Source of the DNA: an uncultured Anaerolineae bacterium
GTDB taxonomy: Bacteria > Chloroflexota > Anaerolineae > JAFGEY01
Assembly: GCA_964449465.1 (NCBI GenBank)
Contig: CAYVBK010000012.1
Coordinates: 26,552 to 90,551, forward strand
Direction: 5' to 3'
Length of the DNA stretch: 64,000 nt
Shown piece by piece: positions 32,322 to 58,433 of the stretch. A model generated the notes under the pieces. That model ran no database searches, had not been told where the DNA came from, and was given only the letters and a program-made list of their open reading frames with translations. The position numbers were made by a program, and so were the translations under genes. Every line of letters begins with the position of its first letter. Position 1 is the first letter of the stretch.

Positions 32322-33071
32322 TTATCCCTGTCTGATAGACAGAAAATGCTCTGTGATCAAAAATCTGGTCAATCCGACCGCCTCGGCCAGCCGGATTGAC
32401 GGCAGGTTATCCTCACGCACTTGATAACGCGGGACAAGGCCGCGTTTGAGCAGCTCATGCACGGCGGCCTCAACCACGCAGCGGGCCAGTCCCCGCCGGC
32501 GATGGCCTTCGACTGTGTGCACGCCGGCAATCTCCCACACATCGCCATAATTGGGAAAACAAAAGCAGGTCGAAAGCGGATCGTCTTGCGCATAGATCGT
32601 TGCAGCAAACGCGCCGCGGGCAAAATAATCTGCCACCTCTTGCTCCGAATAGCCGTTGGCAGCATAGAGAGGCAAACAGCGGGCATCAAGATGCCCGGTC
32701 ATGCGAACATTGGCAGCCGGTGACAGGTCGGAAATCCGCTCTGTCGAACAGATGCCTGTATAGGAGATGTACGCTGTTTTACGTTGCAATTCAAATTCTA
32801 AAGATAGGACCGACCGGGTCGGCGCGTCAATCAATTTGAATACCAGGTCGCAGTCGGTGGGGATGTACACCAACAGCGCCCGTGCCGCCGTCTCGTCCGT
32901 CGCCACAGGCAACACCACATAGCGGGTCAAAGGATACATTTTCCGGTCAAATGACGAAATTAGGGTTGGCAGCAAGAGAAGCACGCCCTTTGATGAGCCC
33001 CTGGAAAAATACTGGCCCTGGATCGCATCGGGATAAGCGGCCAACATTTTCAAATGAACGATGTGACGCAA
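32322..33071 (-). CDS. GNAT-family acetyltransferase (C-terminal GNAT domain); start uncertain
   Basis: [19 protein letters not shown] (motif A) and [18 protein letters not shown]. Confidence 0.75.
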
Positions 33072-33147
33072 AATATCGCGCTTGAAAAAGGATAGAATAT
33101 AGGTAACCGTTCAGGTACAAAATAGCCGATTTCCAAACTTTGCAACC

Positions 33148-33274
33148 ACAACTTGTAGTGTATCAGTGTGAAAAACACAGCTTCGGTGCGGCAAAAAACT
33201 GTGGCCCTTTAAGCACACAAATACTACAAGTTGTAGCTTATGCACAAGAAACACAACGGGTAGTAGTACTACCC
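33148..33274. promoter_or_regulatory. Cluster of palindromes, NrdR-box-like
   Basis: ACAACTTGTAGT (33148-33159) and ACTACAAGTTGT (33223-33234) are a perfect inverted repeat. GGGTAGTA-G-TACTACCC lies at 33258-33274. Confidence 0.5.
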
Positions 33275-33470
33275 CCCTGAACGGTTACGAATATAGTTGG
33301 TCTCGTTTGGTCTGGCGGCAGAATGTCTTGTCATCGAAGGAGAGGTCTCATACGAATGTGTCTGTCTTTGACAACGGCAAAATGTCCGGCCCAATCTGCT
33401 CGACTGGATAGAGCAGCAACGGCTAGAGTCCCATTGCCTCCTCGCAGAATTTTCAGGCGTGCCAGGCATT

Positions 33471-33896
33471 TCAATGCTCACGTAGGATGTCGGCCGGGCG
33501 AGCCGTTTGGATCAATGGCGGCAATCGATCCAACTGTTGGCGATCCAGCGTGACCAACGTCGTATTGTATTGTTGAGCTACCGCCGCGTAGACAGCATCC
33601 ACGCCGCGCAATCGCGCCATGGCTGCCAGGCTGGCCGCCCGCATCGCTACCGACTCATCCAGGGAAACGATCACCTGGTTGGACAAACCACGCAATGCCG
33701 TCGCCCAGTTAACTGCCCGCTCTGCATCGCCCAGGACAGCAGAGACAGCCGCAGCCACTTCAACCAGCAACAAAGAAGGAGAAAACACAAGCCATTGTTC
33801 CCGCCGCACCAGGGACAGAAAAGCCTGGCTGTCTGCCGAATCAGGCTCGGCCGGGTTCAACGCGCTCACATGAACACTGGCATCAATAGTGTACAT
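33471..33896 (-). CDS. PIN-domain toxin (VapC-like)
   Basis: YTIDASV, LLVEVAA, LRGVDAVYAAVA and LVTLD; 141 aa, 9 nt downstream of the antitoxin. Confidence 0.88.
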   Translation of the reverse strand: MYTIDASVHVSALNPAEPDSADSQAFLSLVRREQWLVFSPSLLLVEVAAAVSAVLGDAERAVNWATALRGLSNQVIVSLDESVAMRAASLAAMARLRGVDAVYAAVAQQYNTTLVTLDRQQLDRLPPLIQTARPADILREH

Positions 33897-33905
33897 ACAC
33901 GCCTC

Positions 33906-34184
33906 TTAGCGACGAACCATGTCCAACACATCCTGCGTGGATAGATCAACAGGCCAATCTGCCCGCAGGTCTTTGGCCAATCGCTCGTATTGTTCCCACG
34001 AATCGGAAATCGCTCGCTTGCTGGCCAACACCATCTCCTCTTCTGCTCGCTCAACGTTGAGTGGCAGCAACACGGCTACCGGCCGCCCCTGGTAGGTGAT
34101 CACATACTCGGCTCGTTCTTCGCGCACCCGGCGAATCACTTCGCTGGCCTGTTCTCGCAACTCGCGCACTCCGATCAAAGCCAT
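33906..34184 (-). CDS. Phd/YefM-family antitoxin
   Basis: IGVRELREQASEVIRRV...YVITYQGRPVAVLLP; SD AAGGAGG. Confidence 0.9.
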   Translation of the reverse strand: MALIGVRELREQASEVIRRVREERAEYVITYQGRPVAVLLPLNVERAEEEMVLASKRAISDSWEQYERLAKDLRADWPVDLSTQDVLDMVRR

Positions 34185-34203: not shown

Positions 34204-34254
34204 AATGTAGCATCAATTGATACTACATTGTATCACACCCTCATTCCAGGTCAA
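34204..34254 (-). promoter_or_regulatory. TA promoter with palindromic autorepression operator
   Basis: Minus strand TTGACC-N16-TACAAT with TG at the extended -10 position. AATGTAG-C-ATCAATTGAT-A-CTACATT (34204-34229) is a 26-bp palindrome with one mismatched pair. Confidence 0.75.
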
Positions 34255-35372
34255 ACACGGCGCATCAGTTCGACAAACTCACCGAACAGCGGGTTGGCGT
34301 CGTGCGGGCCGGGCGCGGCCTCTGGATGATATTGGACGCTGAATGCCGGTAAAGAACGATGCCACATGCCCTCCAGCGTGCCATCATACAGGTTGAAATG
34401 CGTGGCCTCGACCTCGCCGCACAGTGAGTCGGCGTCAATGATAAAGTTGTGGTTTTGGGCGGTGATGGCGATCTGCCCCGTTCTTACTTGCTTGACCGGG
34501 TGATTGCTGCCGTGATGGCCGAATTTCAGTTTGCGCTTTTTTCCGCCCAGAGCCAGCCCCAACACCTGATGCCCCAGACAGATGCCGAAAATTGGCACGC
34601 GGCCCAGCAGGATGCGCACCATCTCGATGGTGTACGGCACGTTTTCGGGGTCACCGGGGCCGTTGGAGAGAAACACTCCGTCTGGGTGGAGGGCCAGCAC
34701 CTCTTGGGCGGTGATGTGCGCCGGCGCCACCGTCACCCGGCAGCCCACACCGACCAACTGCCGCAAAATGTTGCGCTTGATGCCGCAGTCCAAAGCCACC
34801 ACGTGCAAATTGCCAGGCGCAGATTGCAGGCGATCCTGGTCAATTTGCCACCCGGCATCCAGCGGTTCGACCCACTCATAAGGCTGCCGGCACGTTACCT
34901 CGGCCACCAGGTCCACATCTGAGGTGGTAGGGGCAGCCTGGGCCTTGCGGCGCAGCGAAGCGGGGTCGAGGTCTATCGTTGAAACGACACCGCGCAATGC
35001 CCCAAACTGCCGCAGATGGCGGGTAAGAGCGCGGGTATCCACCTCGGTGAGAGCCATCACCTCATGTTCGTGCAAATAGCGGGTCAGAGTCTGATGGGCG
35101 CGCCAGTTGCTCTCACGCAGGCTCACCTCACGCACGATCAGGGCGCGCAGGTGCGGCCGCGCCGATTCGCCATCCTCGTCATTGATGCCAATGTTGCCAA
35201 TATGCGGACAGGTCATGGTCACCATCTGGCCGCGATATGAAGGATCGGTGAGAATTTCTTGATAGCCGGTCATGCCAGTGTTGAACACCACCTCACCCAC
35301 CTGCTCGCCGGGCGCGCCAAACGAACGACCGCGAAACATCATCCCATCCTCAAGAACCAGCAAAGCATCCAT
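34251..35372 (-). CDS. carA: Carbamoyl-phosphate synthase small subunit
   Basis: GEVVFNTGMTGYQEILTDPSY, LSNGPGDP, GICLGHQ and VQYHPEA. Confidence 0.97.
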   Translation of the reverse strand: MDALLVLEDGMMFRGRSFGAPGEQVGEVVFNTGMTGYQEILTDPSYRGQMVTMTCPHIGNIGINDEDGESARPHLRALIVREVSLRESNWRAHQTLTRYLHEHEVMALTEVDTRALTRHLRQFGALRGVVSTIDLDPASLRRKAQAAPTTSDVDLVAEVTCRQPYEWVEPLDAGWQIDQDRLQSAPGNLHVVALDCGIKRNILRQLVGVGCRVTVAPAHITAQEVLALHPDGVFLSNGPGDPENVPYTIEMVRILLGRVPIFGICLGHQVLGLALGGKKRKLKFGHHGSNHPVKQVRTGQIAITAQNHNFIIDADSLCGEVEATHFNLYDGTLEGMWHRSLPAFSVQYHPEAAPGPHDANPLFGEFVELMRRV

Positions 35373-35397
35373 CCCTTTACCCCCTATCCCTTATTCC

Positions 35398-35862
35398 TTA
35401 CCCTAGCTTTAATACCACCGCCGTCTCGTCGCAGTTGGGAAACTTGGCACAGTCCATACACTCGCCCCACACTTTGCGCGGCATGGTTTCCTTTTCCACC
35501 ACCACAAAACCGAGCCGTTCGAAAAAGGGCTGCTGATAGGTCAAGGCAAACACCTGCGGCAATCCGAGTTGGATCGCTTCCTGGATCAGCGCTTCAACAA
35601 TATGCCGCCCCACGCCGTTGCCTTGAAATTGCTCAGCCACGGCCAGCGAGCGAATTTCGCCCAGATCGGCCCACAGAACATGCAGGGCCCCGCAGCCGGC
35701 AAACTGACCTTCTTTTTCGGCCACCCAAAAATCGCGAATGTTTTGGTACAAATGACTGCGCGCTTTGGCCAGCATCAGGCCCCGCCCGGCAAATTGATTG
35801 ATCAATGTGTGCATTTTTTCAACGTCGCTCAATGTGGCACGATGAACCAGCAAATCCGACAT
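35398..35862 (-). CDS. argA: Short GNAT N-acetyltransferase, probable N-acetylglutamate synthase (short ArgA type)
   Basis: EIRSLAV..FQGNGVG, VFALTY and MPRKVWGECMDC; position within the arg run; SD AGGAGG. Confidence 0.72.
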   Translation of the reverse strand: MSDLLVHRATLSDVEKMHTLINQFAGRGLMLAKARSHLYQNIRDFWVAEKEGQFAGCGALHVLWADLGEIRSLAVAEQFQGNGVGRHIVEALIQEAIQLGLPQVFALTYQQPFFERLGFVVVEKETMPRKVWGECMDCAKFPNCDETAVVLKLG

Positions 35863-35889
35863 ACAACCTCCTGAAATATCAAACCGCTT

Positions 35890-37071
35890 TCAAAAAATCC
35901 GATCCAACAACTGCACCGCCTGCTCGATCTCGGCTTGTTCGACAACATAGGGCGGCAAGAGGCGCACCACATGCTCGCCAGCCGCGCCGAGCAGAATGCC
36001 GTGTTGATAGCCGGCCGCGAGAATGTCTTTGGTCAGCAGGGTTGTCTCGACGCCCCACATCAACCCGCGCCCGCGAATAGCCGTGATCGAGGCATGTCGC
36101 CCGGCCAGCTCGCTGAGCAGCTCGCCCAAATAGCCGCCCTTTTCGCGCACCCCGGTCAGACATTCGGGCGTGTTGATGATGCTCAAGGCGGCGTGGGCAG
36201 CGGCGCAGATCAGCGGGTTGGCAGCAAATGTGCTGCCATGATCGCCCGGCTCGATCAGCGCGGCCACCCTGTCGGCGGCCAGCGCCGCGCCGATGGGCAG
36301 ACTGCCGCCCAGCGGCTTGGCCGCGGCCACCAGATCGGGGCGGATGCCGCTGGCCTCGAATGCCCACAATGTGCCGGTGCGCCCCATCCCGCACTGAATT
36401 TCATCGCAAATCAACAGAGCCTCGTTTTCATCGCAGACGGCGCGCAGCCCTTGCAAAAACTCGTCGGTGGCCGGATAAATGCCACCCTCGCCTTGCACCG
36501 CCTCGACAATTACGCCGCACGGCTGCACCCGCTCGATCAAGGATCTGGCCGCCCGGAGGTCGTTGAACGGGGCAAAATAAACGCCCGGCATCAGCGGCGC
36601 AAATGGCTCCTGATAACGCGGCTTGGCCGTGAGAGCCAGAGCGCCCATCGTCCGCCCGTGAAACGAGTGTTCAAAGGCCACAAAAGCCGTCTTGCCGCCA
36701 TGCGCCTTGCCCCACTTGCGGGCAAATTTGATGCAGGCTTCGACCGCCTCGGTGCCCGAATTGGTCCAAAAAACGCGGTCGGCGCCGGGCGTGCTTTCCA
36801 CCAAATCGCGCGCCAGCAAGGTTTGCGGCTCGGAATGATACAGGTTGGAAATGTGCATCAACTTGCCGGCCTGCTCGCGAATGGCCTGCACCACCGCCGG
36901 GTGGCAATGTCCCAGCGCGTTGACGGCAATGCCACCCAAAAAGTCCAGATAGGCCTTGCCTTCAGTGTCGTACACCCACACACCCTGGCCGTGATCCAGC
37001 ACAAAAGGCGGGCGGGCATAAGAATGAACCAGGTATTTTTGCTCCAGAGCCATGATCTCTTGGGTATTCAT
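35890..37071 (-). CDS. argD: Acetylornithine aminotransferase
   Basis: Start ATG 37071 after SD GAAAGG. YLDFLGGIAVNALGH, NSGTEA, FHGRT, DEIQCGMGRTG, AKPLGG and HGSTF. Confidence 0.94.
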   Translation of the reverse strand: MNTQEIMALEQKYLVHSYARPPFVLDHGQGVWVYDTEGKAYLDFLGGIAVNALGHCHPAVVQAIREQAGKLMHISNLYHSEPQTLLARDLVESTPGADRVFWTNSGTEAVEACIKFARKWGKAHGGKTAFVAFEHSFHGRTMGALALTAKPRYQEPFAPLMPGVYFAPFNDLRAARSLIERVQPCGVIVEAVQGEGGIYPATDEFLQGLRAVCDENEALLICDEIQCGMGRTGTLWAFEASGIRPDLVAAAKPLGGSLPIGAALAADRVAALIEPGDHGSTFAANPLICAAAHAALSIINTPECLTGVREKGGYLGELLSELAGRHASITAIRGRGLMWGVETTLLTKDILAAGYQHGILLGAAGEHVVRLLPPYVVEQAEIEQAVQLLDRIF

Positions 37072-37102
37072 CTGTGCGATCCTTTCTTCAAAATGAAAAT
37101 AT

Positions 37103-37264
37103 GAGTCCACTGAAAAAACCACCAAGAACACCAAGTACACGAAGAAAGTCAAGACTTGAATTAATTATTTCAATGTTGTATTTGAACAATTTCAAGCTCA
37201 ACCTGAATTTTCTTTGTGACCTTTGTGTTCTTTGTGGTTAAATCCACCTTTTTTCAGGAGAGTC
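37103..37264. mobile_element. MITE-like element related to family B
   Basis: Imperfect TIRs GAGTCCACTGAAAAAA / TTTTTTCAGGAGAGTC, inner IR ACCACCAAGAACACCAAG / CTTTGTGTTCTTTGTGGT, and AAATAT directly flanking both ends (37097-37102, 37265-37270). Confidence 0.6.
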
Positions 37265-37280
37265 AAATATGAGCCGTCCA

Positions 37281-38069
37281 TTATACCTCAGACATGACAA
37301 AGCACGTGCCTTGCCCCTCCATCAGCCCTGGCAGGTTGGCGATCCGCACCTGCCGCACGCCCTGCGCCAGCGCGTCCAGGGCGGCGCGCACTTTGGGAAT
37401 CATGCCGCCGCTGATCTCGCCGGCAGCGATCAAGGCCTCTACATCTGAGGGCGTCAGCAGCGGCAGGCAGGCTCGCTCGGCGCCGGCCAGCACGCCCGGC
37501 ACATTGCTGACAAAAACCAGTTCGGCGGCGTTCAGAGAAGCGGCCAGGGCCGCCGCGGCGTGATCGGCATTGACATTGTAGGTATGTCCATCGAAACCGA
37601 GCGAAATCGGCGATATGACAGGGACAAGGCCATCTTGCAGCAGGGCCGTTACCACCGCTGCACGAGTCTCAACGATTTCGCCGACCCAGCCCCAGTCCTT
37701 GCCGGGGTGCTCCAACCGCCGCACACGAATCAACCCATCGTCTACGCCACTGAGGCCCACCGCGCGCAGCCCCGCCGAAACCAGCCGCGCCGTCAGCCGC
37801 TTGTTGGTCAGCCCCGACAAGACCATCTCGGCCACGTCCAGCGAAGCATCGTCGGTGACACGCAGGCCATCCACAAAACGTGCCGCCAGCCCCAGCCGGC
37901 TTTGCAATTGAGCGATGGTCTTGCCACCACCATGCACCAGCACCACAGACCTATTTTTTGTCAATTCATGCAGCACCGCGATCAAACCGGTCACAAAATC
38001 ATCCGCTGCTGCAGGAGCAATCTGCTCCAGTTCACTGCCGCCAATTTTCAAAACCAGTCGTTCCATCAT
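37281..38069 (-). CDS. argB: Acetylglutamate kinase
   Basis: VLKIGGS, VHGGG, VDGLRVTD, NVNADHAA and GGMIPKV. Confidence 0.95.
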   Translation of the reverse strand: MMERLVLKIGGSELEQIAPAAADDFVTGLIAVLHELTKNRSVVLVHGGGKTIAQLQSRLGLAARFVDGLRVTDDASLDVAEMVLSGLTNKRLTARLVSAGLRAVGLSGVDDGLIRVRRLEHPGKDWGWVGEIVETRAAVVTALLQDGLVPVISPISLGFDGHTYNVNADHAAAALAASLNAAELVFVSNVPGVLAGAERACLPLLTPSDVEALIAAGEISGGMIPKVRAALDALAQGVRQVRIANLPGLMEGQGTCFVMSEV

Positions 38070-38091
38070 TTCTCCAAATCAAGACTTGAAG

Positions 38092-38120
38092 GCGTTGGTT
38101 TCGACAGGCTCAACCAACGC
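38092..38120. repeat. REP-like element, copy 2
   Basis: GCGTTGGTT-TCGACAGGCTC-AACCAACGC, a perfect 9-bp stem. Confidence 0.8.
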
Positions 38121-38178
38121 TTTGACATTAAAACAAAAAGCGGAAAGTGATATATTGCACCGCCAACCACCCAACCAC

Positions 38179-39192
38179 CTAATTCTCCAACCCCATCTTT
38201 TCATCCAGCCCAAACATCACATTCATATTTTGCACCATCTGCCCCGACGCGCCTTTGACCAGATTGTCCAGCGCAGAGGCAATGATAAACTCGTTCGCGC
38301 CGGCCTGGGCAAAGGACACAGCAAAGCAGTTGGTGCAGGTGACAAAAGCCAGCGAAGCCAGTTTGCCGGGTGACAAGACGTGAATAAACGGCTCGCCGGC
38401 ATAGGTTTTGGCATAAAATTCCACCAGCCGCTCCACCGACCATCCGCCATCCAGAGTGATGTAAATGGTGGACAGGATGCCGCGGTTGACCGGCAAAAGG
38501 TGCGGCGAAAAAGTCACCCGCAGGTCGGTATCGCCCCAGGCCTTGACCTCTTGCTCGATCTCGGCCAGGTGGCGGTGCGCCCGCCCGATGCTGTAGGGCT
38601 TGAAATCCTCATTGACCTCGACAAAGAGCGAACCCACTTTGGGGACGCGGCCGGCTCCCGACACGCCCGATTTGGCGTCAATGATGATGCGCGGGTCCTG
38701 CAAATGGCCCCGACTGACCAACGGATAGAGGGCCAGCAAAGCGCAGGTAGGATAGCAGCCAGGGCAGGCTACCAGGTTGGCGGCGGCGATCTGGGGGCGA
38801 TACACTTCGGTCAACCCATAGACCGCCTGAGAAATCAGCTCTGGAGCGTGGTGTATCGTCTTGTACCATTGCTCATAGGCGCGTACATCGCGCAGCCGGA
38901 AATCGGCCGAGAGGTCAATGCAGCGCACACCGGCCTGATAGGCCCGCTGCACCCACTCGACCGACTCGCCGTGCGGCAGGCAGAAAAAGGCCACATCAAT
39001 CTGATCCAGCGGGGCCTGCTCGGCGGCAATCAGCGGGACGTCATAGGGACAAGGGTATAGGTCGCTGATGCGCTGCCCGGCGTTGCTCTGCGAAGTAGCA
39101 AAGACCAACTCAACCTGAGGATGTTTTTGAAAAACTTTGATCAATTCATAACCAGTATAACCGGTGGCGCCCAAAATACCTGCCCGAATCAT
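38179..39192 (-). CDS. argC: N-acetyl-gamma-glutamyl-phosphate reductase
   Basis: GILGATGYTG, CLPHG, DLSADFRL, CPGCYPT, SGVSGAG and DNLVKGASG. Confidence 0.96.
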   Translation of the reverse strand: MIRAGILGATGYTGYELIKVFQKHPQVELVFATSQSNAGQRISDLYPCPYDVPLIAAEQAPLDQIDVAFFCLPHGESVEWVQRAYQAGVRCIDLSADFRLRDVRAYEQWYKTIHHAPELISQAVYGLTEVYRPQIAAANLVACPGCYPTCALLALYPLVSRGHLQDPRIIIDAKSGVSGAGRVPKVGSLFVEVNEDFKPYSIGRAHRHLAEIEQEVKAWGDTDLRVTFSPHLLPVNRGILSTIYITLDGGWSVERLVEFYAKTYAGEPFIHVLSPGKLASLAFVTCTNCFAVSFAQAGANEFIIASALDNLVKGASGQMVQNMNVMFGLDEKMGLEN

Positions 39193-39221
39193 CTCTACTC
39201 CAATCTACATATCGAGCCGTT

Positions 39222-39246
39222 GTTGATTTCGACAGGCTCAATCAAC
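39222..39246. repeat. REP-like element, copy 3
   Basis: GTTGATT-TCGACAGGCTC-AATCAAC. Confidence 0.8.
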
Positions 39247-39285
39247 GCCGGCGAAACCGGCGAGCGGCCATTCTTGATATGGCGC

Positions 39286-39320
39286 AAAAAAAGGCGGCCC
39301 TCCAGTTTGGGGGGCCGCCT
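39286..39320 (-). terminator. Intrinsic terminator (attenuator) upstream of argC
   Basis: Minus strand AGGCGGCCC-CCCAAACTGGA-GGGCCGCCT followed by a T-run (7 T including the stem base). Confidence 0.85.
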
Positions 39321-39361
39321 GAGCGATCCACAGTGATGCACGACGCGACGATCCAACCTGG

Positions 39362-39418
39362 CTAGATCAAGTGGAAACCCAATCGTCGTCGCAATGTATT
39401 CAAAAAAAGGTCTCTCAT
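39362..39418 (-). CDS. Putative arg leader peptide MRDLFLNTLRRRLGFHLI (18 aa)
   Basis: ATG AGA GAC CTT TTT TTG AAT ACA TTG CGA CGA CGA TTG GGT TTC CAC TTG ATC TAG. GGAG lies 8 nt upstream; the terminator starts 41 nt after the stop. Confidence 0.72.
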   Translation of the reverse strand: MRDLFLNTLRRRLGFHLI

Positions 39419-39422
39419 CTTC

Positions 39423-40262
39423 TCAACTCCCAGTCGGCCTACAGGCGACCGACGGCCATAGTGTATCACGAAACCCGCGCCCTGTCAAAAGCTCTTGTAC
39501 CTTGAGCCGCACATCACCGGCCCGCACCAACGCTTCGCCGACCAGTATGGCATCCACACCCATGTTGCGCAAAAAATCCACATCGGCGCGGGTATGAATG
39601 CCGCTCTCGGCCACCACCACCACGCCATCGGGGATCAGTGGGCGCAGGTGGGCGGTGGTTTCAATATCCACCGTAAATGTCTCCAGATTGCGATTGTTGA
39701 TGCCAATAATGCGCGGACCGAGACGCAGGGCGCGCTCCAACTCGGCCCGGCTATGCACCTCGATCAGCGCCGACATGCCCAATCTGTCGGTCAGCGCGTA
39801 CAGCGCGGCTAGTCGCTCATCATTCAGAATGGCGACAATGAGCAGCACGGCATCGCTGCCGGCGGCGCGGGCCTCGTAGACCTGATAGGCATCCAATACA
39901 AAATCTTTGCGCAGCAATGGCGCGTTGACAGCCTGCCGCACCGCGCGCAGGTCGGCCAGCGAGCCTCCAAAAAATCGCTCATCGGTCAGCACGCTGATTG
40001 CCGCCGTGCCGCAGGCCTCATAGGTCTGGGCCAGGTTTGTGGGATCGAGGTTAGGGCAGAGCGGCCCCTTGCTGGGCGACCGGCGTTTGATCTCGGCGAT
40101 CAGGGCCACCTGGTCAGGACGGCGCAATGCCGCCGCAAACGAACGCGGCGGCATTGCGGCCGCTGCCTCGGCCTGCACCTGCGCCGGCAACCGCACCGCC
40201 TGGCATCGTTCTACCTCGATCCACTTCCAGGCCACGATTTCATCCAGGATGTTGGAGGTCAT
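39423..40262 (-). CDS. trpC: Indole-3-glycerol phosphate synthase
   Basis: Start ATG 40262. LIAEIKRRSPSKG, SVLTDERFFGGS, LLRKDF, GINNRNL and VAESGI. Confidence 0.96.
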   Translation of the reverse strand: MTSNILDEIVAWKWIEVERCQAVRLPAQVQAEAAAAMPPRSFAAALRRPDQVALIAEIKRRSPSKGPLCPNLDPTNLAQTYEACGTAAISVLTDERFFGGSLADLRAVRQAVNAPLLRKDFVLDAYQVYEARAAGSDAVLLIVAILNDERLAALYALTDRLGMSALIEVHSRAELERALRLGPRIIGINNRNLETFTVDIETTAHLRPLIPDGVVVVAESGIHTRADVDFLRNMGVDAILVGEALVRAGDVRLKVQELLTGRGFRDTLWPSVACRPTGS

Positions 40263-41289
40263 TCCGGTCTCCTTGTTTCGCCAACACAAACCCCACGCGA
40301 TGCTTGATCTGGCGCATTTTCGGCTCGGTCACTGCCTGGGCCTGCTCGGCCCCCAGAGCCAGCATCCGGTCGAGGGCGGCCGGGTCGGTCATCAACTCGA
40401 CATACCGCTCACGGAGGGGGCGCAAGGCTTCGATCACCACTTCGGCCAGTTCGCTCTTGAGTGCGCCATAGCCTCGCCCGGCAAAATGCGTCTCGATCTG
40501 CGGGCGGCTCTGGCCGGTCAGCAGTTCATAGATTTCCAACAGATTGTTGACCCCCGCTTTTTCCGGCGCGTTGCTAAAGACAATCTCGCGGCCGGTATCG
40601 GTGACGGCGTGTTTCAGCACGGCGCGGATGGTGTCGGGATCGTCGGTCAGACGCACGGCGTGGTCGCGAAGGTGCGCCTTGCTCTTGCTCATTTTCTGTG
40701 TCGGGTCGTTGAGGGCGCGGATGCGCGCGCCCACCTGCGGCAGCACTGCTTGGGGGATGACAAAGGTATCGCCATAAAGAGCGTTGAACCGTCCGGCAAT
40801 GTCGCGCGCCAGCTCGACATGCTGCTTTTGGTCCTCGCCCACCGGCACCTCATCGGCGTCATAGAGCAAAATATCGGCGGCTTGCAGCACCGGATAATCC
40901 AGCAGACCGGCACCCACGCTCTCTTGCATCTGCGCTTTGACCTTGTATTGGGTCATCCGCTCCAGCCAGCCCACCGGCGTGACGCAGTTGAGGATCCAGC
41001 AACACTCGGCATGCGCCGGCACATGGCTCTGGATGAAAATGACACAGCGGCGCGGGTCGAGGCCGCTGGCCAGGTAACAAGCAGCCAGTTCGCGAGTTTT
41101 CTGGCGCAAAGCCTCTGGCTCTTGCGGCACGGTGATAGCGTGCATATCTACGATGCAAAAATAGTTCTCTTTGTCGTTTTGCTCGGCCACCCAGCGACGG
41201 ATGGCGCCCAAATAGTTGCCGATGTGCAGCATACCCGATGGCTGAATGCCTGAAAAGACGCGCGGCCGGGCATGTTGAGACTGAACCAT
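40240..41289 (-). CDS. trpS: Tryptophanyl-tRNA synthetase
   Basis: Start ATG 41289 after SD AAGGAG. FSGIQPSG, HIGN, YPVLQAADIL, VPVGEDQKQH and KMSKS. Confidence 0.97.
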   Translation of the reverse strand: MVQSQHARPRVFSGIQPSGMLHIGNYLGAIRRWVAEQNDKENYFCIVDMHAITVPQEPEALRQKTRELAACYLASGLDPRRCVIFIQSHVPAHAECCWILNCVTPVGWLERMTQYKVKAQMQESVGAGLLDYPVLQAADILLYDADEVPVGEDQKQHVELARDIAGRFNALYGDTFVIPQAVLPQVGARIRALNDPTQKMSKSKAHLRDHAVRLTDDPDTIRAVLKHAVTDTGREIVFSNAPEKAGVNNLLEIYELLTGQSRPQIETHFAGRGYGALKSELAEVVIEALRPLRERYVELMTDPAALDRMLALGAEQAQAVTEPKMRQIKHRVGFVLAKQGDRNDLQHPG

Positions 41290-57652: not shown

Positions 57653-58433
57653 GCAGACCTCCCCCTTGATCCAGACAGGGCAGCGAATCAACGGGCTGCA
57701 CGCCACGAGCGGCCAACTGCTGCGCGTCAAAAAAATGAATCTGGCGCGAAGGCAGCGCCTCGGTGGTGACAGAACGCCCAAATGCCTGACGTAGAAACAA
57801 ATAGCGTGACGAAAACCACAACGTTTGCCAGTCGGCCGAATAATGCACACACAAAGGCATATCTTTTTTGATCACCAGCAGGCCATAAGGCCGGCGCAAG
57901 TCTACCGACAGGGTGGTAAACCGCCCTTCTAACAGGGTTATGCGTTGCTGGGCCTGCTCCAGATAATCGCCGTTGCACTGCGCCGGCGAAATCGTATCCA
58001 GCATGCCAAAAATGATCTCGCTATCCACCTGCCCATAGCGAGGCAGAGCCAGCCGTGCAAAGAGATCGTCGTCGTTGTGAATATAGCCATTGTGGATGCC
58101 CAGCACATGTCCGCTGAGCAAGGGGTGATTGTTGAGATTATCGAGAGGACTGCCCTTGGTGGGCAGACGAGCATGCCCCAGCATGCACACCGTTTCGCCG
58201 CCCACTTGCGCCATCACATCCTGGTACGCTGCGGTTTCTATCAGCTCGGCAGCAGGGCCGGGCTGTTTAAGCAAGGTATAGCGACCATCCTGTTGAATGA
58301 CGGCCACGCCGGCGGCATCTCGGCCGCGTTCTTGATTCGAGATCAGGTTACGGGTAAACACCTGCCGAATTTCTTGCCAGACCTCGGCAGGCCGTTCGCC
58401 GGGCGAGAGCAACGCCGCAGCAATTCCACACAT
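57645..58433 (-). CDS. Class II (Ntn) glutamine amidotransferase domain protein
   Basis: Start ATG 58433 gives MCGI (N-terminal Cys nucleophile). ERGRDAAG, GHARLPT, NNHP, HNG.I.N and VDSE; no synthase domain. Confidence 0.9.
   Translation of the reverse strand: MCGIAAALLSPGERPAEVWQEIRQVFTRNLISNQERGRDAAGVAVIQQDGRYTLLKQPGPAAELIETAAYQDVMAQVGGETVCMLGHARLPTKGSPLDNLNNHPLLSGHVLGIHNGYIHNDDDLFARLALPRYGQVDSEIIFGMLDTISPAQCNGDYLEQAQQRITLLEGRFTTLSVDLRRPYGLLVIKKDMPLCVHYSADWQTLWFSSRYLFLRQAFGRSVTTEALPSRQIHFFDAQQLAARGVQPVDSLPCLDQGGGLHG

Follow-up and report, generated by a model that had tools for sequence, protein, structure and literature searches.

Among the founding paradigms of gene regulation is leader-peptide attenuation, which is known for His, Trp, Leu, Thr, Phe, and Ile/Val, with scattered further cases such as Cys in mycobacteria. 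In the enterobacterial his, leu, trp, thr, pheA, and ilv attenuators (hisL, leuL, trpL, and their like), a promoter-proximal short open reading frame (ORF) preceded by a Shine-Dalgarno (SD) sequence carries tandem codons of the end product, a helix between RNA segments 1 and 2 (the 1:2 helix) forms over these codons, and an intrinsic terminator precedes the first gene, which is expressed by read-through. We found these features in common upstream of argC in a stretch of 64,000 nucleotides of DNA from an uncultured Anaerolineae bacterium (contig CAYVBK010000012.1), the whole of which is called the window below. Very probably, the arg leader of the window controls argC, argB, argD, an argA-like gene, and carA in response to charged tRNA-Arg, as a ribosome-mediated leader-peptide transcription attenuator of the classical type. 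Arg leaders of this kind differ from the enterobacterial attenuators in the amino acid, in their occurrence in Chloroflexota and Alphaproteobacteria, and in their sequence, which shows neither similarity to them nor an Rfam match (His_leader, Leu_leader, Trp_leader, or Thr_leader). Furthermore, the stop codon of the window-type leader does not adjoin segment 2, and the antiterminator is long, interrupted, and predicted.

The usual, textbook control of bacterial arg genes is ArgR. Regulation by ArgR/AhrC and ARG boxes has the pathway and the signal (arginine sufficiency) in common with the arg leader, but it is a protein-DNA interaction and acts at initiation. In fungi, the arginine attenuator peptide (AAP), encoded by the upstream ORF (uORF) of arg-2/CPA1, has a conserved sequence; as a nascent chain, it arrests the ribosome at high free arginine and blocks scanning. 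Like the AAP uORF, the arg leader would be an arginine-responsive uORF upstream of an arginine/carbamoyl-phosphate gene; unlike the AAP, its peptide is conserved only in the Arg run and in the His-Thr-Leu codons of an RNA helix, and the stall is predicted at low arginine. T-box leaders resemble the arg leader in that the 5' leader of amino-acid genes switches between terminator and antiterminator according to tRNA charging; they differ in reading uncharged tRNA directly by RNA-RNA contact without translation, and the arg leader has no T-box features. In a 2005 survey of Actinobacteria, arginine was listed among the pathways without RNA elements there, with arginine T-boxes elsewhere (PMC1262725), and arg was not mentioned in a 2010 terminator survey (PMC2965389).

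In Salmonella, consecutive Arg codons in orf34, a translated uORF of speF, couple ribosome progress to arginine (Ben-Zvi et al. 2019, PMC6386406), and this arginine-dependent progress selects between alternative mRNA folds, as is proposed here for the arg leader. However, orf34 controls ornithine decarboxylase through Rho-dependent termination, unmasking of a ribosome-binding site, and RNase G sensitivity, with no intrinsic terminator, and it has two Arg codons in a conserved peptide of 34 codons (PMC6386406). In Staphylococcus aureus, rare AGA and AGG codons in the leader ORF rbfL sense arginine limitation by ribosome pausing (Kohl et al. 2026, PMC13009471). In contrast to the arg leader, rbfL acts on translation by occlusion of the downstream ribosome-binding site, is repressive under arginine limitation, concerns a biofilm regulator, and has no terminator/antiterminator switch (PMC13009471). 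A full-text literature search, outside of which lay subscription-only comparative-genomics papers, returned no leader-peptide transcription attenuator of arginine biosynthesis. We regard the arg leader as a real and probably undescribed member of the classical attenuator class, in which the amino acid and the lineages are new.

Arg-codon leader and terminator upstream of argC

The features of the arg leader and the surrounding genes are listed in Table 1. The initial annotation had described an SD-preceded ORF of 18 codons with AGA and three CGA codons, and this ORF was present base for base on the minus strand, with AGA as codon 2 (39415-39413). All four Arg codons of the leader are of rare types in the window, where CGA and AGA account for 5.8% and 1.8%, respectively, of the Arg codons in 15 genes; the rare CUA codons of E. 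coli leuL are a parallel. The pairing proposed between CGACGAU (39388-39382) and AUCGUCG (39352-39346) was confirmed to be exactly complementary. The GC-rich stem and U-tract noticed before argC proved to be an intrinsic terminator at 39320-39292, with arms AGGCGGCCC(C)CCA (39320-39308) and UGG(A)GGGCCGCCU (39304-39292) and a U-run (39292-39286) that lies 93 nt from the ATG of argC (39192). Its folding energy was -23.8 kcal/mol (z = -5.07), a stability that none of 200 shuffles reached, and it was the strongest hairpin with a T-run on the minus strand of the window; the fold of the whole leader gave z = -2.0. A second CGACGACGA in the window, at 58066-58074, lies within a coding region, where it is read as N-D-D-D, and is unrelated.

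Table 1. Features of the arg leader and neighboring genes in the window
Feature	Position	Strand	Remarks
Promoter, -35 hexamer TTGACA	39483-39488	(-)	invariant in 11/11 type A homologues
Promoter, extended -10 TGaTACACT	39460-39468	(-)	T21 G22 T24 A25 A27 C28 T29 invariant in type A
5'-untranslated region hairpin GUCGGUC-GCCUGUA-GGCCGAC	39433-39453	(-)	window-specific; from alignment and folds
SD sequence GGGAG	39427-39431	(-)	8 nt before ATG; AGGAG there in all homologues
Leader ORF, MRDLFLNTLRRRLGFHLI	39362-39418	(-)	18 sense codons + TAG; ATG 39418-39416, TAG 39364-39362
Regulatory codons CGA CGA CGA (Arg10-12)	39383-39391	(-)	
Segment 1, GCGACGACGAU	39382-39392	(-)	5' strand of 1:2 (protector, possibly pause) helix
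P1 hairpin GAUCUAGC-CAG-GUUGGAUC	39350-39368	(-)	stop codon in 5' arm
Segment 2, AUCGUCGCGUCGUGCAUC	39335-39352	(-)	alternative partners: segment 1 or segment 3
Predicted antiterminator hairpin	39307-39356	(-)	-15.4 kcal/mol; UUGG:CCAA, GUCGC:GCGGC, GUG:CGC, AUC:GAU
Conserved box UCAcUGUGGAUCGC	39323-39336	(-)	14 nt; consensus UCAAyGUGGAUCGC; between segment 2 and terminator
Intrinsic terminator	39286-39320	(-)	stem of 9 + 3 bp, loop AAC, U7
Arg leader and terminator as a whole	gap of ~230 nt, trpC to argC	(-)	
argC	38179-39192	(-)	ATG at 39192; NCBIfam match above curated cut-off
argB	37281-38069	(-)	NCBIfam match above curated cut-off
argD	35890-37152	(-)	NCBIfam match above curated cut-off
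Short ArgA-like GNAT N-acetyltransferase	35398-35862	(-)	NCBIfam match above curated cut-off
carA	34251-35372	(-)	NCBIfam match above curated cut-off
Regulated operon argC-argB-argD-ArgA-like-carA	34251-39192	(-)	
trpC	39423-40289	(-)	stop TGA 39425-39423
T-box leader RF00230	44832-45168	(-)	98.9 bits; upstream of trpE

The promoter (39488-39460) agrees with the consensus at 10 of 12 positions, with a 17-nt spacer and a TG-extended -10 element, TACACT, and its predicted transcription start is near 39453. It falls within the last 20-odd codons of the trpC ORF, in a non-conserved 3' tail, and this TTGACA/-10 pair was the only promoter-like site before argC. In the terminator-to-argC spacers (21-249 nt) of all 11 loci of the window type (type A, see below), a promoter-like site was looked for and none was found. 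This lack of a promoter after the terminator indicated that expression of argC needs read-through. Inside the operon, neither a strong terminator nor a strong promoter was found on the minus strand (34251-39192). The hairpin in the 5'-untranslated region is an insertion of about 17 nt that is absent from the relatives. Its GGUCGCCUG can pair over 9 bp with CAGGCGGCC in the 5' arm of the terminator; judged from complementarity, this could be a second, ribosome-independent antiterminator or a mere coincidence.

A search of the 64 kb window with the E. coli ARG-box TNTGAATWWWWATTCANW, allowing up to three mismatches, gave 0 matches against 2.45 expected. The impression that no convincing ARG box is present therefore held for E. 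coli-type boxes throughout the window; a divergent operator is possible. Rfam 15, searched at 38900-39800 with E up to 10, returned no relevant family, the only matches being chance ones to the terminator hairpin. Over the whole window, the T-box upstream of trpE was the only Rfam family, and the leaders of types A to D (see below) from seven loci gave no match.

Conservation of the leader in relatives

Homologues were collected from a scan of a genome collection, from ArgC homologue look-ups, and from a metagenome scan with an ArgC alignment. The genome-collection scan gave an Anaerolineae metagenome-assembled genome (MAG) with an ArgC 83% identical and an Ardenticatenaceae MAG with one 56% identical; the metagenome ArgC matches listed were mostly distant loci (best 60% identical), which were used as controls. 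The initial annotation had named the lack of a conserved Arg-rich uORF in relatives as a result that would refute attenuation. The outcome was the opposite: an Arg-rich uORF with a terminator upstream of argC was present in all 20 loci with ArgC at least 50% identical, whatever the upstream gene. A strict filter was applied, demanding at least three Arg in four codons in an ORF of 8-40 codons that lies within 300 nt of argC and terminates ahead of a T-run hairpin with an energy of -14 kcal/mol or lower. It retained 15 of the 20 loci and 4 of 124 more distant loci (Fisher p = 6e-13). The remaining five loci have the leader and fail the filter on spacing or distance, and three of the four positives among the controls were the Arg/Lys-rich C-terminus of an upstream rpsI. 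When the strict-filter comparison was made by amino acid, no amino acid except Arg was enriched before argC.

Eleven of the sequences, including the window, form type A (ArgC 65-100% identical). All of them have the promoter TTGACA-17-TA(C/G)ACT, AGGAG, and an ORF of 15-18 codons with an invariant CGA CGA CG(A/G) followed after 4-6 codons by a stop. They also share a small hairpin located at this stop, a segment 2 rich in G and U, the box, and a GC-rich terminator ending in a U-run; homologous ORFs of this length are those of L001, L145-L151, L156, and L157. The ATG is in frame with the Arg run in 10 of the 11. The exception, L152 (ENA contig_53427), is a long-read contig in which the neighboring argB and argD are each split in two, so that its frame break looks like long-read indel errors rather than biology. 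The peptides otherwise differ (for example MTANFTHIIRRRETGC, MIAWFLYTIRRRRTHG, MMTVFAHVLRRREASH, MTPSAHTLLRRRLAAG, and MINREFTLRRRLPAP), and nothing beyond the Arg run and the helix-forming H-T-L codons is conserved in them. The leader peptide of the window contains five Leu codons, which the initial annotation had raised as a caveat, yet Leu is not kept in the homologous peptides, and Leu sensing was rejected.

The upstream gene differs in almost every type A locus (trpC, uvrA-like, helicase, NUDIX, TMEM260, polyprenyl synthase, GerE, GYD, and ABC ATPase genes), in some on the opposite strand, which indicated that the unit of promoter, leader, and terminator belongs to argC. Some of the spacers from terminator to argC are just 21-28 nt. 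The 249-nt spacer of L145 contains four tandem units of about 33 nt (GAAAAGCGCAGCCGACGCAUCCCGAUGCAUCGG; L145 ~2270-2440). Extra GC-rich hairpins were seen in L156, between the post-stop hairpin and segment 2, and in L157, between segment 2 and the terminator; these insertions leave the remaining elements undisturbed, so that the spacing there appears tolerant.

Covariation of the 1:2 helix and the terminator

The RNAalifold consensus of the 11 type A leaders consisted of a 12-bp 1:2 helix and a 12-bp terminator. In the former, CACACAuuGCGACG, covering the His/Thr/Leu and first Arg codons, pairs with CGUCGu..UGUGUG on the 3' side of the stop; 4 of its 12 pairs show compensatory changes, and 86-96% of the cells are paired. 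Among the 12 conserved pairs of the terminator, 5 are compensatory. The two helices jointly had 91.6% of cells paired, against 39-58% in slid registers, and 9 compensatory pairs, against 4.4 +/- 1.3 in shuffles, of which 1 in 500 was as good; the covariation score was 0.326 against 0.218, and 0 of 500 shuffles reached it. In the window, the 1:2 region together with P1 folds at -21.2 kcal/mol, and relatives carry a UCCArGCUGGA hairpin at the position of P1. The conservation of uORF and terminator, the synonymous Arg codons, the covariation, and the absence of an ARG box, a T-box, and an Rfam family from the leader supported the interpretation, made at the outset, as attenuation sensing Arg-tRNA.

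Proposed mechanism and the antiterminator

In the mechanism that we infer from these sequences, transcription would start at the conserved sigma-70-type promoter in the tail of trpC, and a ribosome would initiate on the 18-codon leader. At high levels of Arg-tRNA, this ribosome would pass the CGA run, reach the stop, and leave. Segments 1 and 2 would then pair, or a stop-bound ribosome would cover the entry of segment 2; segment 3 would stay free, the terminator would form, and polymerase would halt 93 nt short of argC. At low levels of Arg-tRNA, stalling on CGA-CGA-CGA would leave the ribosome masking segment 1, and segment 2 would pair with the terminator 5' arm and the box to form an antiterminator that allows read-through into argC. 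Translation of the leader, stalling on its Arg codons, and the exact form of the type A antiterminator are the steps of this scheme that were deduced from sequence.

The antiterminator was predicted by folding the part of the RNA that is made before the 3' arm, with the stop codon at one end and the terminator loop at the other. An alignment-level fold with a mask for the stalled ribosome gave just a 4-bp consensus antiterminator. Single-sequence folds predicted one long interrupted hairpin of the same topology in 11/11 type A sequences. The partner of segment 2 in this hairpin is the box together with the lower 5' arm, and that of the post-stop segment is the top of the arm with the loop; GCGGC and CCAA of the terminator 5' arm are thereby sequestered. 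The pairing was present in 83% of the cells, against 34-52% in slid registers. The short GUCGC/GCGGC antiterminator suggested by the initial annotation stands as a part of this longer hairpin; the hairpin itself has no statistical support, as described below. If it forms as modeled, the predicted antiterminator would extend that 5-bp pairing and would give the conserved box a role. Conservation of the box (window, L001, L145-L151, and L156) exceeds what the predicted pairing explains, and the box, about 10-12 nt past the 1:2 helix, may serve for pausing or for contact with a protein. We speculate that it could act as a hairpin-dependent pause site that synchronizes ribosome and polymerase.

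Several points weigh against attenuation of this form. Covariation of the antiterminator was tested in type A and none was found, 268 of 500 shuffles being as good. Its energy was no better than that of dinucleotide shuffles (z = +0.56 in the window and -1.3 to +0.6 in the relatives), duplexes of segments 2 and 3 beat shuffled partners only marginally (mean z = -0.49), and a permutation test of matched against mismatched outer helices failed (p = 0.26). By the same p value, covariation of the terminator loop with the post-stop segment was rejected; both sides are simply conserved. In type A, 12-15 nt separate the stop codon from the downstream core of segment 2, so that a ribosome at the stop would not fully mask segment 2, and the replete state would depend on rapid re-formation of the 1:2 helix. 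In the stalled state, P1 can form and remove the outer antiterminator helix. The invariance of CGA could result from RNA pairing rather than from decoding speed. Finally, T-box-trp read-through with reinitiation after the trpC stop could complicate the regulatory logic in the window. The window type presents a puzzle, in that the good support for the 1:2 helix and the terminator does not extend to an explanation of the antiterminator and the 14-nt box.

Unrelated leaders of types B, C, and D

Leaders of types B, C, and D were found at more distant ArgC loci; their RNA sequences are unrelated to type A and follow the same logic. Type B (L065, L066, and L153-L155; peptide, for example, MIEFDAFQLRRSPRRYPDQRSG) uses AGG, CGA, CGC, and CGU; type C (FPRRxRRRR; L002, L067-L069, and L076; for example MSNTNQIFPRRLRRRRQTPGLVFCVV) uses CGU and CGC; and type D, from eight soil-metagenome loci (L079, L086, L090, L091, L094, L095, L097, and L105; for example MMTIAHRLRRRRAFAATADRV), uses CGC and CGU and lies about 110-230 nt upstream of argC. 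Types B and C belong to Chloroflexota. In L090, the one type D locus checked, the closest named relatives of ArgC were from Pseudolabrys, an alphaproteobacterium, and type D was taken as alphaproteobacterial on this locus. Arg is kept while its codons change between the types, which indicated selection on decoding and not only on RNA sequence.

Folds of types B, C, and D showed textbook mutually exclusive 1:2, 2:3, and 3:4 pairings. In type B, segment 1 (CCGGAC) follows the Arg run, segment 2 is GGUCUGG, and segment 3 (CCAGAC) is in the terminator arm; the stop codon abuts segment 2 (UCU GGA UAG), and GUCUGGA:UCCAGAC is released by masking the Arg codons and removed by masking the stop. The Arg run of type D (CGCCGCCGCCGY) itself serves as segment 1, and a hairpin, GUGCCGCCGG...CCGCGGCAC, is conserved with a poor U-run. 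The Arg codons of type B in L065 and L153-L155, AGG AGG AGC C, contain an SD-like AGGAGG within the ORF, which could add SD-like pausing or internal initiation.

On balance, we lean toward the broader view that undescribed Arg-codon attenuators of at least four unrelated types govern arginine biosynthesis in a broad set of Chloroflexota (MAGs labeled Anaerolineae, Ardenticatenaceae, and Caldilineae) and, independently, in Pseudolabrys-like Alphaproteobacteria. If so, arginine would be added to the amino acids sensed by stalling (His, Trp, Leu, Thr, Phe, and Ile/Val), by repeated evolution: four unrelated types in two phyla would show that the design arises repeatedly. A conserved argC attenuator would extend the list into a phylum with almost no experimentally studied regulation. 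For annotation, the uORF and terminator would explain the 230-nt 'intergenic' gap and predict regulation of the arg operon in MAGs. With its E. coli-like promoter, SD sequence, and terminator, the leader should be easy to test in a heterologous host and could serve as a sensor of arginine or of tRNA-Arg charging.

Alternative explanations

The terminator might merely end the trpEGD-trpS-trpC transcript and the Arg-run mini-ORF might be a chance ORF in GC-rich DNA. The stop of trpC lies 4 nt before the leader ATG with no other terminator after trpC, and in the window (58% GC) 6 of 17 strong hairpin and T-run sites are preceded by an Arg-run mini-ORF within 220 nt. Judged by this one sequence, the leader is not convincingly above chance; it rises above chance because its Arg codons are rare and, decisively, because it is conserved in relatives. 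There, the unit precedes argC behind unrelated or divergent upstream genes, the invariant CGA CGA CG(A/G) shares the frame of the ATG in 10/11, the Arg-codon helix covaries, and the comparison with distant loci gave p = 6e-13. A terminator that also ends trp transcripts is an addition to attenuation and not an alternative to it. The comparative data refute coincidence for practical purposes, and we give it next to no weight.

Two other explanations accept that the terminator is regulated, and we consider each of them improbable. In one, the switch would be read by a factor other than the ribosome, either a riboswitch ligand or a protein that binds the box or the CGACGACGA repeat, with the ORF incidental or auxiliary. 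The nucleotides of the CGACGACGA run and of the box are indeed conserved in type A, synonymous changes being almost absent, no pairing partner of the box is proven, and the hairpin antiterminator is statistically weak; however, SD and in-frame ATG are kept in 10/11 type A loci (the exception being on a frameshift-ridden long-read contig), three unrelated types keep an in-frame Arg run with different Arg codons, no Rfam family matched, and the leader outside the helices is short and variable, with little room for a ligand pocket. Alternatively, a translated leader might control the terminator and report general translation capacity or rare-codon decoding rather than arginine supply, through the level or inosine modification of tRNA-Arg(ICG), nascent-chain slowing by poly-basic stretches, or growth rate. 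CGA is decoded via I:A wobble and is intrinsically slow, and runs of basic residues slow elongation, which, together with the rarity of CGA in the window and the rare AGA at the beginning of the leader, speaks for such a signal. Against it, the element is specific to arginine-biosynthesis operons in at least two phyla, the other types use the common CGC and CGU, and only Arg runs are enriched before argC; an effect of translation capacity would also overlap sensing of tRNA-Arg charging rather than exclude it.

Gene neighborhood of the arg leader

On the minus strand, the gene order is the T-box leader, trpE, trpG, trpD, trpS, trpC, the gap with the arg leader, argC to carA, a Phd/PIN pair, a GNAT gene, and carB. 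The aligned specifier position of the T-box is GAA-UGG-G, with a Trp codon, and the trpE-trpG-trpD-trpS-trpC operon appears to be T-box-controlled and to adjoin the leader-peptide-controlled arg operon. The trpC ORF continues for about 18 codons beyond the TrpC family models, and this tail spans the arg promoter and the 5'-untranslated region. Since no separate terminator follows trpC, the terminator of the arg attenuator probably ends the trp transcripts of this genome as well. The trpC stop is located between the SD sequence and the ATG of the leader, and the leader ORF could be translated by reinitiation on trp read-through transcripts.

Between carA and carB, the minus strand encodes a Phd-family antitoxin (33906-34184), a PIN-domain toxin (33471-33896), and a GNAT acetyltransferase (32322-33071), so that a toxin-antitoxin pair is lodged within the arginine/carbamoyl-phosphate gene cluster (32322-34184). 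A hairpin with a T-run before carB (32400-32368) was considered and rejected as an attenuator, being located in the C-terminus of the GNAT gene. In one relative, argS is inside the attenuated operon (argC-argS-argB; L149:3549-5315), and in another it lies two genes upstream (L146:1-1379); arginyl-tRNA synthetase may be co-regulated with the arginine pathway.

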